A stretch of 6,037 nt of DNA from a virus (taxonomy: Duplodnaviria; Heunggongvirae; Uroviricota; Caudoviricetes). The stretch lies in the IMG/VR virus record IMGVR_UViG_2609459804_000029, one strand, 5' to 3'. This document shows positions 61-5,201 of the stretch, in pieces. The translations under genes and the position numbers were made by a program. The notes below the pieces were generated by a model. It did no database searches and had not been told where the DNA came from. It saw only the letters and a list, made by a program, of their open reading frames with translations. Position 1 is the first letter of the stretch; each line of letters begins with the position of its first letter.

Positions 61-1323
61 ATGCCAAAACTTACAGATATTCAGATCCGTGCCTGGATAA
101 AGGCAGACGAGAGGTTTGACGGCAAAGCTGACGGTAACGGCCTGTATCTCTGCTATCCTAAAAATTACACAATGCCCTTCTGGCGATTCCGCTATAAGTT
201 TGCTGGCAAACAACGGGCGATGGTTATCGGGTCATATGCAGAGTTATCACTATCCAGAGCCAGAGAAACAGCAAAGGAACTATCCGCCCGCGTCGCACTT
301 GGGTACGACGTAGCAGCGGAGAAACAGGAGCGTAAAGCCGAAGCACTGGCAAAAATGGAGGCAGAAAAAAACGCCATACGAGTATCAGAGCTTGCCGCCG
401 AATATTTCGAACGCCAGATCCTGCCGCGCTGGAAACATCCCGATATCCTCCGTCGTCGCATCGACAAGGACATAAACCCGCGTATTGGTCATATGAAGGT
501 TGAGGATGTAAAACCACGACACGTTGACGAGATGCTAAAAGCAATTGTTGACCGTGGAGCGCCAACCATAGCAACGGACGTTCTGCGCTGGACGCGTCGC
601 ATATTCGACTACGGGATAAAACGTCATGTGCTGGAGATTAACCCGTGCTCGGCGTTTGAAGTCTCTGATGCTGGTGGCAAGGAGTCATCCCGCGATCGCT
701 GGCTGACCCGTGAAGAGTTAATCCGGTTCTTTCAGGCCATGCGTACCGCAAAGGGATTCAGCCGACAGAACGAGCTAACCTTCAAGTTGCTACTGGCGCT
801 TTGCGTCAGGAAGATGGAGTTGTGCGCCGCCAGATGGGAAGAGTTCGACCTTGATAACGCCGTGTGGCATTTGCCAGAGGAACGCAGCAAAAACGGCGAC
901 CCCATAGATATTCCACTTGTTCCCCCCGTTATTGAATGGCTGAAAGAACTGCGCGTCTTGTCATGCAATAGCGCGTGGGTACTTCCGGCGCGGAAAATGC
1001 AGCACAGGATGATCCCCCACATTCAGGAGAGCACCCTACCCGTTGCACTGCAAAAAGTTCGCGCAGAGATGTCGGAGGTTCCAGATTTCACTATTCACGA
1101 CTTCCGCCGTACAGCACGCACACATTTAGCCGCGCTTGGTGTTGATCCGGTAGTCGCTGAAAGATGCCTCAATCACCGCATCAAGGGAGTCGAGGGCATA
1201 TACAATCGCTATCAGTATTTCGATGAACGGACTTCGGCGCTGGCGAAATGGACCAATCTGTTAGTGTCGCTGGAACGCGGGGAACGCTACAACGTGACAC
1301 CAATCAGAAGGGCCAAAGCATGA
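61..1323 (+). CDS. int: Tyrosine site-specific integrase, P4/CP4-57 (IntA-like) family
   Basis: 420-aa ORF; N-terminus MPKLTDIQIRAWIKA matches the LTD..I.A.K start typical of P4-type integrases; C-terminal HDFRRTARTHL and GIYNRYQY resemble the box II region and catalytic Tyr. RBS-like AGGGA 8 nt upstream of ATG 61. The ORF is open from position 1, so an in-frame start at 1 or upstream cannot be excluded. Confidence 0.9.
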   Translation: MPKLTDIQIRAWIKADERFDGKADGNGLYLCYPKNYTMPFWRFRYKFAGKQRAMVIGSYAELSLSRARETAKELSARVALGYDVAAEKQERKAEALAKMEAEKNAIRVSELAAEYFERQILPRWKHPDILRRRIDKDINPRIGHMKVEDVKPRHVDEMLKAIVDRGAPTIATDVLRWTRRIFDYGIKRHVLEINPCSAFEVSDAGGKESSRDRWLTREELIRFFQAMRTAKGFSRQNELTFKLLLALCVRKMELCAARWEEFDLDNAVWHLPEERSKNGDPIDIPLVPPVIEWLKELRVLSCNSAWVLPARKMQHRMIPHIQESTLPVALQKVRAEMSEVPDFTIHDFRRTARTHLAALGVDPVVAERCLNHRIKGVEGIYNRYQYFDERTSALAKWTNLLVSLERGERYNVTPIRRAKA

Positions 1324-2356: not shown

Positions 2357-2572
2357 ATGACAGCTAACCATCAAGAAGCTATCCCTACCACGGGCTATAT
2401 CCGCCGCTGCAACCTGGCTAAGTTGCTTGATACCAGCGTGTCAACTATCGACCGCTGGGTGCGTATCGGCAAATTACCGAAGCCCACGAAGCTGGGGGAG
2501 AAAAACACCGTATTTAATGCGGTGGAGATCAACCACTGGCTGAACGAGCGCCGCAACAACACCAAGCAGTAA
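2357..2572 (+). CDS. alpA: AlpA-family (phage-type, MerR-like HTH) transcriptional regulator
   Basis: 71 aa; segment IRRCNLAKLLDTSVSTIDRWVRIGKLPKPTKLGEKNTVFNAVEINHWL fits the AlpA pattern (HTH, then G.FP.P.K.G, then E.W). RBS GAGGGA 4 nt before ATG 2357. An in-frame ATG at 2297 is an alternative start but has poor RBS spacing. Confidence 0.8.
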   Translation: MTANHQEAIPTTGYIRRCNLAKLLDTSVSTIDRWVRIGKLPKPTKLGEKNTVFNAVEINHWLNERRNNTKQ

Positions 2573-2639: not shown

Positions 2640-3488
2640 ATGAAACGTCCGAATATGCCCGTACAGGGGCAGGGCTTCGTTCAGCCCGAAGAACTGAGCC
2701 AACAGTATTTCGCCGCAATTATTCCGGTATCACCTGGCATTATTGGCGGATATGAAACGGGCATTGTCAGCGCACGCGCACTGCATAAAGCGCTCGGTGT
2801 AGGCCGTGATTTCACTACCTGGATCAAAGGGCGTATTGAGGAGTACGGATTTAAAAAAGGTGTGGATTTTGAGGTTGTAGAAAATTTGTACTTTGATTCC
2901 CCGAAACGGGGGAGCCAAAGTGTAAATATTGAACAGTTTGATTCTGGCTGGACAACAAAGCGCGGCGGTGATCGCCGCAGTGAAGACTATTTGATCTCCA
3001 CGAACATGGCTAAAGAACTGGCGATGGTCGAACGCACTGAACAGGGCCGCGCAATTCGCCAGTACTTCATCAAATGTGAAGAAGAGCTACACAAGGCAGC
3101 GCCGGAACGTGCCGCAGCTTTGCGCCGTGAACTGAAAGCGCGTGTCACCGTTGCCAGTTTTTTTAAGCCTATGTGCGCTGCGCTGGAGTTGTACCGCGCA
3201 GAGCTGGGAAAAGAGACTCATCAACACCACTACACCACAGAATCAAATATGCTGGCGCGTATCGTGCTGGGCGGCATGACGGCGAAACAATGGGCGCAGG
3301 AGAACGGCATCAAAGGAAAACCGCGTGACAGCATGAGCGTTATGCAGCTTGAACACCTTTCCTACCTTGAGCAGAGCAATATCACGCTGATTGAGTTGGG
3401 TATGACTTACCAGCAGCGAAAAGCCGAATTAATCCGCCTTTCACAGCGCTGGCTGGCCCGTCGCATGGGAGAGCATGAACATGCCTGA
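2640..3488 (+). CDS. Phage antirepressor-like protein (AntA/AntB-type N-terminal domain)
   Basis: 282 aa; N-terminal SARALHKALGVGRDFTTWIKGRIEEYGFKKGVDFEV matches the AntA-domain signature; central STNMAKELAMVERTEQGRAIRQYFIKCEEEL resembles the conserved antirepressor C-terminal core. RBS AGGAG 6 nt before the ATG. Confidence 0.75.
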   Translation: MKRPNMPVQGQGFVQPEELSQQYFAAIIPVSPGIIGGYETGIVSARALHKALGVGRDFTTWIKGRIEEYGFKKGVDFEVVENLYFDSPKRGSQSVNIEQFDSGWTTKRGGDRRSEDYLISTNMAKELAMVERTEQGRAIRQYFIKCEEELHKAAPERAAALRRELKARVTVASFFKPMCAALELYRAELGKETHQHHYTTESNMLARIVLGGMTAKQWAQENGIKGKPRDSMSVMQLEHLSYLEQSNITLIELGMTYQQRKAELIRLSQRWLARRMGEHEHA

Positions 3489-3739
3489 CATCCTCAAACC
3501 TGCTGTCCGGTACATCGACACGGCGGATAAGTTCGCACTACTGAACATCAACCATGCGGATTACATGCGCCATATCGTGAGCCATTTCGCCGCTGAGCGC
3601 ATGAAACACGTTAAGCAATACTTGGGGGAGGTTTTATCAAATTATCGCGCTGGTGGCCCTGTACGGCGCGAATATCCGCATGATGCAGGAATGGCAGGCA
3701 AAACAAAGGCGACCACGAAAGGGTCGCCAGTGGAGATAA
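3475..3739 (+). CDS. Hypothetical small protein, possibly frameshifted at a G5 run (3624-3628); boundaries uncertain
   Basis: ATG 3475 overlaps the end of the antirepressor gene. The N-terminal ~50 aa look protein-like. A +1 frame entered at the G5 run reads RFYQIIALVALYGANIRMMQEWQAKQRRPRKGRQWR with preferred codons and stops at 3737-3739, leaving a clean gap before the - strand gene ending at 3795. The track ORF 3475..4521 beyond ~3795 is S/R/C-rich antisense-like read-through. Confidence 0.25.
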
Positions 3740-3794
3740 AGGAAATCAAGCGCATCACCAACTATGCCATGAGTGTAGCTGGTGGACAAGGCTA

Positions 3795-3983
3795 TCAGCC
3801 TGGCGGGCGATTTTTGGTTGCTTTTAGCCGCCGTGGGTATTTGTCCAGAAATGCCTCAAGCGCAAGTCGTTTTGGTCTGGTGAGAGGAGAGGGATTAAGC
3901 AAAGACTCTCGCTTCTGGCGTGCTTTTTCGCGCTGGCGCTCAATTATGGATAATGCGATTGCCTGTAATTCTTCGTTGGTCAT
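3795..3983 (-). CDS. Hypothetical small protein (62 aa), downstream of the RHH gene on the - strand
   Basis: Helical, charged N-terminus MTNEELQAIALSIIERQREKARQKRE; sits 57 nt after the RHH gene stop in the same orientation. Weak RBS and mixed codon usage in the second half. Confidence 0.4.
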   Translation of the reverse strand: MTNEELQAIALSIIERQREKARQKRESLLNPSPLTRPKRLALEAFLDKYPRRLKATKNRPPG

Positions 3984-4040
3984 TGTGTGCGCCTGTAAAG
4001 CAATGCGCCGGAGTTCCTCACACCACGGCGCTGATAGTGA

Positions 4041-4346
4041 TTATTCTGATTCTTTGGCCTTGCGGCGCTGGAGTTCTTCGCGTGCAACGGTGATAAGCTG
4101 CCCGATTTCCTCCGCTGCCTTGATGCCGATTTGTTCGACATTAGCTAGGGCATCCAGTGAAGACACAAGGGGATTTTCTCCACTTCCTTCTGCCTGGCGC
4201 CTGGCGATCTCACCGCGTACAGCCGTAACTATAAAATTCGCTTTAGTTTCCCCTGGCTGTAGGGATGCCTCAATGCCACTCACTACTTCATGTGGAAATC
4301 TGGCATTCAGTTGCTGTGACTTATTGTTAACAGAACTCCTGGACAT
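4041..4346 (-). CDS. Arc/Mnt-like ribbon-helix-helix transcriptional repressor (101 aa)
   Basis: Strong RBS GGGAGGTG before ATG (complement of 4344-4346). N-terminal LNARFPHEVVSGIEASLQPGETKANFIVTAVRGEI aligns with the Arc motif FNLRWPREVLDLVRKVAEENGRSVNSEIYQRV as I recall it. A ~50-aa helical C-terminal extension is reminiscent of Mnt. Start chosen at MSRSS rather than the upstream in-frame ATG at 4493. Confidence 0.7.
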   Translation of the reverse strand: MSRSSVNNKSQQLNARFPHEVVSGIEASLQPGETKANFIVTAVRGEIARRQAEGSGENPLVSSLDALANVEQIGIKAAEEIGQLITVAREELQRRKAKESE

Positions 4347-4376
4347 GTTTGCACCTCCCATTAATAACGGGATGCA

Positions 4377-4443
4377 GTGTAATACAAAAGTGAATACCAA
4401 AAAAGACTTGAAATGGTATTCACTTAAATGTAATGTGAATACC
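4377..4443. promoter_or_regulatory. Divergent promoter/operator: GTGAATACC at 4390-4398 and 4435-4443, inverted copy GGTATTCAC at 4415-4423, degenerate copy at 4377-4385; candidate rightward promoter TTGAAA (4408-4413), 17-bp spacer, TAATGT (4431-4436)
   Basis: Motifs read directly from sequence; the inverted copy lies in the promoter spacer and the third copy overlaps the -10. Located between the divergent RHH gene and the Icd-like operon. Confidence 0.45.
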
Positions 4444-4481
4444 ACAAGTGCTGATACATGCAATTCAGCAATTGAAACGAC

Positions 4482-4518
4482 GAAGCCCCGCAAGTGTCGT
4501 TACCACTCGCAGGGCTTC
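4482..4518 (+). other. Imperfect hairpin (13 of 15 positions paired, 7-nt loop) in the presumed 5' leader of the rightward operon
   Basis: GAAGCCCCGCAAGTG pairs with CACTCGCAGGGCTTC with two mismatches. No U-tract on either strand, so not a canonical terminator. Confidence 0.3.
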
Positions 4519-4546
4519 TAACCAACAACGTAAACTAGGAGCCGTT

Positions 4547-4744
4547 ATGGTTGCCGTAAATCATATACCACGTCTGGCGCACACACAAACGGCCTTTGTG
4601 TGGCGTTTTCTGGCCCTGAGTGCCGGAGAATCTCAAATCATCAACGTAACCGCCTGGACGGAACTCGAAGCGCGTAACCGTTGCCCGTCAGGTTGCGTTG
4701 CTGTATTCGCCGCCCGTATCCGTCAGGAGGCATCACATGGATAA
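4547..4744 (+). CDS. Small protein, host cell division inhibitor Icd-like family (tentative), copy 1
   Basis: 65 aa; RBS AGGAG 5 nt before ATG 4547; shares FVWRF...ARIRQE with the paralog at 5031..5201. Family name is recalled from P4-like prophage annotations and is uncertain. Confidence 0.55.
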   Translation: MVAVNHIPRLAHTQTAFVWRFLALSAGESQIINVTAWTELEARNRCPSGCVAVFAARIRQEASHG

Positions 4745-5030
4745 AAACATGTTGATCGCCTCTTCTTTCGGGCTGTATGATGCCGGAGTCGCCCACATGG
4801 CGGCCGGGTTTAGCAGCCTGAATACATCTGGCGGACAGCCGCCCACATCCGATAAGCGGTTTTTTTGTGTCCGTAAACCTACCCATACCCGCATTATGGC
4901 GGGGCGTAACGGGGGAGCCTTTGTGCTCGCTGGTTTCCAGATGACCAGTCTGCTAACCCTGTTACGTCTCGCCACCATGTTTAGCAGCGTAGTAGCGAGA
5001 CTCCTTAAAATTCATCTGGGAGCCTTTCAC

Positions 5031-5201
5031 ATGGCTGTATCCGCACGCCCTTACTTTGTCTGGCGCTTTATGCAGTGCCTGACAGACAGCATTGCAATAT
5101 TCACCGTTACCGCTGCCACTGAGCGCGAAGCACGCGCCCGGCTGCCGCACGCACATCTGATTTTTGTCGCCCGTATCCGTCAGGAGGTGACTCATGCTTA
5201 A
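5031..5201 (+). CDS. Small protein, Icd-like family (tentative), copy 2
   Basis: 56 aa MAVSARPYFVWRFMQ...LIFVARIRQEVTHA; RBS CTGGGAG 8 nt before ATG 5031. The frame is open upstream to ATG 4737 (strong RBS CAGGAGG), so a 154-aa fused product 4737..5201 is an alternative. Confidence 0.5.
   Translation: MAVSARPYFVWRFMQCLTDSIAIFTVTAATEREARARLPHAHLIFVARIRQEVTHA

Follow-up and report, generated by a model that had tools for sequence, protein, structure and literature searches.

The stretch of DNA analysed here, 6,037 nucleotides of the IMG/VR virus record IMGVR_UViG_2609459804_000029 (Caudoviricetes; hereafter the window), is by its gene content the left part of a capsid-forming phage satellite of the phage-inducible chromosomal island (PICI) type. 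In it, a leftward gene for a small protein of the YlcI/YnfO family stands back to back with a rightward operon, which opens with an Icd-like gene and runs on through a putative immunity RNA to the start of a primase gene. The region between the two carries a cluster of short direct and inverted repeats, and these repeats, together with the protein that might read them, are the subject of the present analysis. The features of the window are collected in Table 1.

Repeats and candidate promoters in the intergenic region

The 9-mer GTGAATACC occurs three times without a mismatch, at 4390-4398 and 4435-4443 on the plus strand and at 4415-4423 on the minus strand, and in the whole window the sole further match with at most one mismatch lies at 1986-1994. 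When the window was shuffled 1000 times with its dinucleotide counts preserved, one shuffle contained a 9-mer of any kind in three non-overlapping copies (both strands counted) within a span of 70 bp, so that the clustering is not put down to chance. Scattered copies with up to two mismatches, that at 1986-1994 included, were considered as further sites and set aside, their number being at chance level (20 observed, 15.9 expected). Exact sites are found nowhere else in the window, nor elsewhere in the related elements taken whole.

The flanks shared by the three copies extend the motif to A[A/T]GTGAATACCA. In four close relatives (L017, L026, L028 and L029) the G that the window has at 4435 is replaced by C and the A at 4444 is retained; the register was therefore shifted to TGAATACCA, and the three copies are given in this register as O2, O3 and O4 in Table 1. 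Besides the three exact copies, which the search bears out, the initial annotation had counted a degenerate fourth, GTGTAATAC at 4377-4385. This sequence is present, but it aligns with a block common to relatives that have quite different repeats; because the block, (A)GTATACACAAAA, occurs in classes with unrelated repeats, 4377-4385 is probably not an operator copy.

In the shifted register the array can be read as four to five evenly spaced sites with a period of 22-23 bp, of which the first (O1) would have decayed and the last (O5) is possible. O1, CGGGATGCA in the window, is placed by positional homology; indeed, L031, which belongs to the same beta-strand class as the window, has a perfect TGGTATTCA at this position. 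At the position equivalent to O5, where the window has TGCAATTCA, an extra site is found in some other classes.

The array is laid over a predicted rightward promoter, P_R, whose start would lie at about 4441-4444. The inverted copy, O3, falls within the 17 bp between the -35 hexamer TTGAAA and the -10 hexamer TAATGT, and O4 covers the last bases of the latter, both as the initial annotation had proposed; the sites overlap the core promoter, and the position of this promoter is conserved in all classes of relatives. Directly upstream of the -35, the A-tract AAAAAAGAC resembles a proximal UP-element, judged against a consensus taken from general knowledge. Upstream again, the class-independent block that holds the supposed degenerate copy, AGTGTAATACAAAA in the window, reads TACACT on the minus strand, where relatives have TATACT, TATAAT or TATAGT, and may be the -10 of a leftward ylcI promoter. 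No convincing -35 was found for this TATACT-like block, and in the relative L005 the promoter scan gives a different leftward candidate, one that overlaps the rightward -10.

The 5' leader of the rightward operon contains a conserved stem-loop. Eleven variants of it, across classes, species and genera, keep the outer stem and differ in the inner stem and loop in a compensatory way. It is not an intrinsic terminator, since it is without a U-tract.

Table 1. Features of the window in order of position (position 1 is its first nucleotide); promoter coordinates refer to P_R.
Feature	Position	Strand	Evidence or remark
int, P4-type integrase	61-1323	+	
Unassigned ORF (open reading frame)		+	between int and alpA
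alpA	2357-2572	+	Pfam Phage_AlpA/HTH_17
AntA-family antirepressor-like gene	2640-3488	+	
ORF of 62 amino acids	3795-3983	-	downstream of the ylcI-like gene; no Pfam/NCBIfam match at E<=0.01
YlcI/YnfO-family gene, 101 amino acids	4041-4346	-	proposed operator-binding repressor
Shine-Dalgarno GGAGGTG of the ylcI-like gene	4352-4358	-	read from the sequence
O1, decayed site CGGGATGCA	4368-4376	-	6/9 to TGGTATTCA; positional homology, relatives carry a full site here
Class-independent block AGTGTAATACAAAA	4376-4389	-	alignment of 47 distinct upstream regions; (A)GTATACACAAAA in most relatives
O2, TGAATACCA	4391-4399	+	exact; about -52 to -44
A-tract AAAAAAGAC	4399-4407	+	directly upstream of the -35; A-tracts here in most relatives
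-35 TTGAAA of P_R	4408-4413	+	TTGACx conserved here in all 10 classes
O3, TGGTATTCA, inverted copy	4414-4422	-	exact; abuts the -35 inside the 17-bp spacer, -29 to -21
-10 TAATGT of P_R	4431-4436	+	TAAnnT conserved 17 bp (16-18) after the -35 in all classes
O4, TGAATACCA	4436-4444	+	exact; spans -7 to +2
O5, possible weak fifth site TGCAATTCA	4459-4467	-	7/9; 23 bp beyond O4, alternating orientation; weak evidence
Stem-loop GAAGCCC...GGGCTTC, then TAACCA	4482-4518	+	5' leader of the rightward operon
Icd-like gene, first of the operon	4547-4744	+	NCBIfam phage_ICD_like, 2.3e-16
c4-a1b1-like element	4775-4824		Rfam 30.2 bits, below gathering score
isrK/seqA-like element	4788-4866		Rfam isrK 36.6 bits, below gathering score
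Putative C4/CI-type antisense immunity RNA	4892-4979	+	Rfam C4 72.7 bits (gathering score 45)
Second Icd-like ORF	5031-5201	+	
Two small ORFs, DUF4222, start of primase		+	after the second Icd-like ORF

The YlcI/YnfO-family protein and its co-variation with the sites

The protein encoded beside the array consists of a ribbon-helix-helix (RHH)-like N-terminal domain (about residues 9-53), a Gly-rich linker (EGSGENP) and a long C-terminal helix (residues 59-100). The NCBIfam model NF041551 (YlcI_YnfO_N) matches residues 9-50 with 60.3 bits, where the cut-off is 30 (E 1.3e-16), and places the protein in its family; the RefSeq label of the E. coli orthologue is likewise YlcI/YnfO family protein. 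An RHH fold of the N-terminal domain is probable. A single-chain model of this domain finds structural matches almost only among RHH proteins, and hhalign aligns the segment QLNARFPHEV with QFNLRWPREV of Arc (P 9e-4, probability 23%), with the Q, N and R of the strand falling at what we take to be the base-contacting residues Gln9, Asn11 and Arg13 of Arc. Pfam searches of the protein at E<=0.01 matched no family, with no RHH model passing; profile searches against PDB sequences matched no RHH protein; and no curated RHH (MetJ/Arc) sequence model recognises the protein. The RHH-clan family PF07704 gives sub-threshold matches only, in 18 of 25 members (best E 0.0015). A match of residues 45-86 to a helix-hairpin-helix-like PDB entry of the Hef/XPF kind (E 0.0065) was not adopted because AlphaFold2 predicts one continuous helix there. 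In a library-wide profile search, 79 clusters were returned, and many of them are proteins of 52-65 amino acids that cover just the N-terminal domain, which therefore appears to be a self-contained module.

A search with the full protein found 126 relatives, all from Enterobacterales, in whose alignment the N-terminal third (residues ~11-35) is variable and the remainder conserved; tblastn of the protein against 50,697 phage records gave no match. The comparison set comprised 93 loci with 47 distinct upstream regions; 12 loci were retrieved from one-genome-per-species contigs, of which the 11 covering the N-terminus were used upstream, and 80 from viral contigs. Every locus has the same layout. 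A -35 of the form TTGACx begins about 61-64 bp from the start codon and TAAnnT follows 17 bp on (16-18), while, counted from the start codon, the repeats have offsets of about 21, 45, 67 and 90, again with a period of 22-23 bp; one of them directly follows the -35 in the spacer and another begins at the last base of the -10. This architecture extends to loci of the Enterobacter, Erwinia, Photorhabdus, Xenorhabdus, Pantoea, Klebsiella and Yersinia type. Conversely, a search of 2.9 million viral contigs for the O3-O4 pair, TGGTATTCA-N13-TGAATACCA, returned 16 contigs, and all 16 are class-A ylcI loci that had already been retrieved.

The loci fall into ten classes according to the beta-strand of the protein, each with its own repeat at the same positions, and the repeat follows the residues that precede an invariant R-x-P. 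The strand of the window, QQLNARF, goes with TGAATACCA / TGGTATTC. The strands KQISIRI and RQISIRI go with TGTGATTC, QLTTVRV with TGTGTTTC, QMTTIRV with TGTATATC and QSLTARI with TGTAAG(A/C)C; classes with K-N-x-R have repeats of the GTGTG(T/C)A type. When the best 8-mer of each class is set against the regions of all classes, the resulting matrix is block-diagonal. For instance, the Klebsiella sp. locus L012, of a class other than the window's, and the E. coli-type L087 have in common the strand QISIRIP and all four sites of the TGTGATTC type, while their flanks differ.

Conservation in related elements, which the initial annotation had named as a check on its motif, is found in a particular form: the positions of the sites are kept in all loci, and their sequence is conserved within protein classes and not between them. 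Within classes, 127 of 140 site columns are identical (91%) against 90 of 156 other columns (58%), a difference significant by Fisher's test (p=5e-11) when one divergent pair per class is pooled. Between classes the corresponding values are 53% and 48%, which is not a significant difference.

Sliding identity indicates how far the exchanged segment reaches. E. coli-type loci of other classes are 73-100% identical to the window over the 3' two-thirds of the ylcI gene, and 40-60% from codon ~43 through the intergenic region. At the protein level, the C-terminal half (residues ~53-101, encoded at 4041-4190) is 84-94% identical across the classes of E. coli-type loci, against 40-55% for the N-terminal 40 residues. 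At the other end, L017, of the window's own class, is 93-100% identical to the window over about 4201-4423, and its identity drops after ~4440, just past O4. As judged from these alignments, the co-inherited unit is the N-terminal ~43 codons together with O1-O4. The sites, in the manner of operators, co-vary with the DNA-reading part of the protein and are conserved within a specificity class, and this comparative evidence supports the adjacent RHH-type protein, which the initial annotation had named, as their likely binder.

Three side observations concern individual sites and loci. A one-mismatch copy, TGAATGCCA, lies within the ylcI coding region at 4301-4309 on the minus strand, at a distance of 67 bp (3 x 22.3) from the O1 centre; class-A loci keep this copy, but coding constraint confounds its conservation. 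In L031, a divergent class-A-like locus, O1 and O2 keep TGGTATTCA and GAATACCA, and O3 and O4 are both replaced by another inverted pair, again perfect (CGATTCAC / GTGAATCG), as if the two sites nearest the promoter had changed in concert. Lastly, L079 and L086, of the KQISIRI class, have the -35 altered to TTTACC or TTTGCC and also encode a second YlcI-like protein, with the beta-strand QKLQARAP, elsewhere in the locus.

A proposed operator array and its alternatives

Taken together, these comparisons make it quite likely that the repeats are the operator array of the divergent YlcI/YnfO-family protein, an RHH-type regulator that would repress P_R and with it the replication operon of the satellite. 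Each site of about 9 bp (TGAATACCA) would be read by one RHH dimer, and the C-terminal helices and the Gly-rich linker would join dimers bound 22-23 bp, or about two helical turns, apart; Mnt, for comparison, associates through its C-terminal domain. A flexible linker would explain how the orientation of the sites can change from class to class at constant site position. With O3 beside the -35, O4 over -7 to +2 and O2 on the upstream A-tract, occupancy would exclude RNA polymerase and so repress the operon from P_R, that is, the icd-like genes, the C4/CI-type immunity RNA, DUF4222 and the primase. Sites in the spacer and over the -10/+1 region are positions from which bacterial regulators repress. 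Furthermore, the conserved block ahead of the gene of the protein itself is flanked by O1 and O2, an arrangement suggestive of autoregulation. We infer binding, stoichiometry, repression and autoregulation, as well as the role in quiescence considered below, from the positions of the sites and from general knowledge.

Several points weigh against this proposal. The hexamers of P_R in the window match the consensus at 8 of 12 positions, which is below the threshold of the promoter scan, and were not called; the positional homologues in relatives score 9-10/12 and are called (for instance, TTGACG-17-TAATAT in L005 and TTGACA-17-TAAAGT in L033). No leftward -35/-10 pair in the window reaches the scan threshold, and none is clear there. 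Of the divergent promoter that the initial annotation had placed under the repeats, the rightward half is supported, being conserved in position in every relative, and the leftward half is not clearly identifiable in the window. A spacing of 22-23 bp is unusual for RHH operators, and the orientation patterns of the sites differ between classes. The co-variation falls short of fully independent evidence, for the sites lie physically next to the N-terminal codons and share one recombination module with them. In the published model of Gram-negative PICIs, moreover, induction proceeds via the activator AlpA and the existence of a repressor is called 'unclear' (PMC6092414), and the searched literature holds no binding, transcription-start or expression data for the YlcI/YnfO family.

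The sites might instead serve mainly to autoregulate the ylcI-like gene, in the fashion of an RHH autorepressor of the antitoxin or partition type, with no meaningful control of the rightward operon. This seems unlikely. The best-conserved sites, O3 and O4, are those that bracket the rightward -10 in every class, and the site that has decayed in the lineage of the window is O1. In addition, the minus-strand ORF that follows the ylcI-like gene belongs to no recognised Pfam or NCBIfam family (Table 1), and the genes at that place differ between elements.

A little less probable again is that the repeats are bound by some other class-specific factor, such as AlpA, a helper-phage protein or a host factor, with the YlcI-like protein no more than a linked neighbour. 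The co-variation of sites and protein could result from adjacency by itself, and AlpA of Pseudomonas is known to bind an element of a promoter and to load onto RNA polymerase. In E. coli, AlpA is required for the induction of PICIs and capsid-forming PICIs (cf-PICIs) (PMC6092414; bioRxiv 2022.09.08.507074). The alleles and protein identities of AlpA, AntA, the Icd-like protein and DUF4222, however, do not follow the motif class, and AlpA was rejected as the reader of the repeats on that ground. A host factor is disfavoured by the presence of at least six motif classes among E. coli elements, and the sole protein segment within the co-inherited module is the RHH-like N-terminal domain. Indeed, the restriction of this unit to ~43 codons and the sites argues against AlpA, a Rep protein and a host factor alike.

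A role of the repeats as iterons in the replication of the satellite, or as sites for its packaging or recombination, is very improbable. Direct and inverted repeats of about 9 bp with an even period of 22-23 bp do resemble iteron arrays, but these repeats are locked to the -35/-10 elements. L001 and L094, which have the same YlcI protein and an identical operator, encode replication proteins that are alike over the first ~160 residues only and have unrelated C-terminal domains, and iterons were rejected on this comparison; the PICI origin, furthermore, lies downstream of pri-rep (PMC6092414). Most improbable of all, and strongly disfavoured, is a chance or relic duplication without function: two-copy 9-mer repeats are common in shuffles and the promoter of the window is sub-threshold in the scan, but three copies arose in one shuffle of the 1000, the within-class conservation of the sites is significant at p=5e-11, and the same architecture recurs across the genera listed above.

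A wider proposal can be put forward tentatively, as one that we hold to be possible rather than probable. In a large subgroup of the Gram-negative PICIs and cf-PICIs, the YlcI/YnfO RHH protein might act as the master repressor so far missing there, with at least ten heteroimmune specificities arising from the swapping of a reading head of ~43 codons together with its operators. The C-terminal helix would then be a common handle by which repression is lifted, either by helper phages or by AlpA-driven read-through from the left arm. If this were true, AlpA and the C4/CI RNA would be joined in Gram-negative PICIs by a further level of control resembling that of Stl.

The surrounding satellite and known systems

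The window has the gene content of a PICI/cf-PICI, the capsid genes lying beyond it and being known from related E. coli elements. E. coli elements with near-identical YlcI and intergenic region continue with a primase or DUF927, SSB, major capsid, protease, portal and connector genes, and this gene order is the capsid-forming PICI layout of bioRxiv 2022.09.08.507074. Between the two Icd-like ORFs, 4775-4979 appears to be an RNA immunity module of the P4 CI/seqA or P1 c4 type, downstream of P_R. RNA immunity elements of the P4 CI/seqA type have been reported in Gram-negative PICIs, and the C4/isrK pair of the window corresponds to them (PMC10111431). YlcI/YnfO itself is listed merely as an accessory 'prophage-associated protein' of cf-PICIs (PMC13612085).

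Some further observations concern transcription across the ylcI-like gene. An open frame of 348 codons at 3475-4521 on the plus strand begins at the end of the AntA-like gene. It lies antisense to the 62-residue ORF and the ylcI-like gene and spans all of the operator region; most of it is probably no genuine gene. Transcripts reading on rightward from the alpA/antA unit would pass through ylcI in the antisense direction before entering the operon. In the opposite direction, the leftward transcript of ylcI and the 62-residue ORF probably stops at a terminator-like hairpin with a T-run on the minus strand (3708-3728; GGCGACCCTTTCGTGGTCGCC TTTGTTTT). In a cf-PICI of E. coli O157:H7 (L094, 8743-9380), an annotated truncated Icd-like pseudogene on the plus strand overlaps ylcI on the minus strand, which points to insertion of the ylcI-operator module into an alpA-icd unit that is co-directional apart from it.

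The mechanism proposed for the array, an RHH repressor on a promoter-overlapping operator, is in itself textbook. The searched papers contain no characterisation of YlcI/YnfO function or of an RHH satellite regulator, and describe no repressor of Gram-negative PICIs. The proposal gives the YlcI/YnfO family a concrete role that can be tested: it defines the sites and the target promoter and predicts the specificity residues. The arrangement suggests that the replication and immunity-RNA operon of a satellite is under protein as well as RNA control. The compact and swappable recognition module, ~43 codons and ~100 bp with at least ten specificities, offers a data set from which a recognition code of RHH proteins could be worked out, and orthogonal repressor-operator pairs might be drawn from it. 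The locus would become considerably more interesting if the YlcI-like protein proved to be the quiescence repressor of these satellites.

Among known systems, the immI region of P22, with Mnt, Arc and the overlapping divergent promoters Pant and Pmnt, resembles what is proposed for the window in having a small RHH protein encoded divergently from the promoter it controls, with operators in or over the core promoter. Mnt combines an N-terminal RHH domain with a C-terminal helical oligomerisation domain, as the YlcI-like protein probably does; the strand QLNARFP of the window aligns with QFNLRWP of Arc, and the window has a gene of the AntA antirepressor family nearby. The YlcI-like protein, however, has no significant membership in the Mnt/Arc family (hhalign probability 8-23%, no Pfam Arc/RHH match at threshold). 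The operators differ as well: those of Mnt and Arc are single compact palindromes of 17-21 bp with half-sites one turn apart, whereas the window has four to five 9-bp sites set 22-23 bp apart over ~95 bp. The target in P22 is ant, and in the window it would be an operon of icd-like genes, a C4 RNA and replication genes. Arrays of direct and inverted sites are known from another RHH protein, the omega repressor of pSM19035, which binds 7-bp heptads (WATCACW). These heptads follow one another without a gap, at 7-bp spacing, and the dimers on them touch directly, in contrast to the sites of the window, which lie two turns apart and are paired with a protein that has an extra long C-terminal helix.

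In the Staphylococcus aureus pathogenicity islands and other Gram-positive PICIs, the gene of the repressor Stl (Rpr) is likewise divergent from the excision and replication operon, with operators between stl and str, and the specificity classes described here are comparable to the allelic variants of Stl (PMC6092414). Stl is a large helix-turn-helix (HTH) repressor unrelated to RHH proteins, and de-repression by a helper-phage protein has been shown for Stl; of the traits of an Stl-type master repressor, the window shows the divergent gene arrangement. The immI region of P1, in which the C1-controlled promoter Op51 is followed by c4 RNA, icd and ant, and the P_LE-CI region of P4 resemble the arrangement proposed for the window in combining a protein-controlled promoter with a C4/CI RNA and its target repeats and an icd-like gene (PMC10111431); the P1 repressor C1, however, is unrelated to YlcI and encoded elsewhere, and P_LE of P4 is without an RHH operator array. 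Finally, the heteroimmune modules of lambdoid and P2-like phages, such as P2 and WPhi, exchange the DNA-binding part of the repressor and its operators together between conserved flanks, as the window and its relatives appear to do (PMC1904268). The repressors of those phages are HTH proteins, and the exchange seen in the satellites takes in only the first ~43 codons and ~100 bp.
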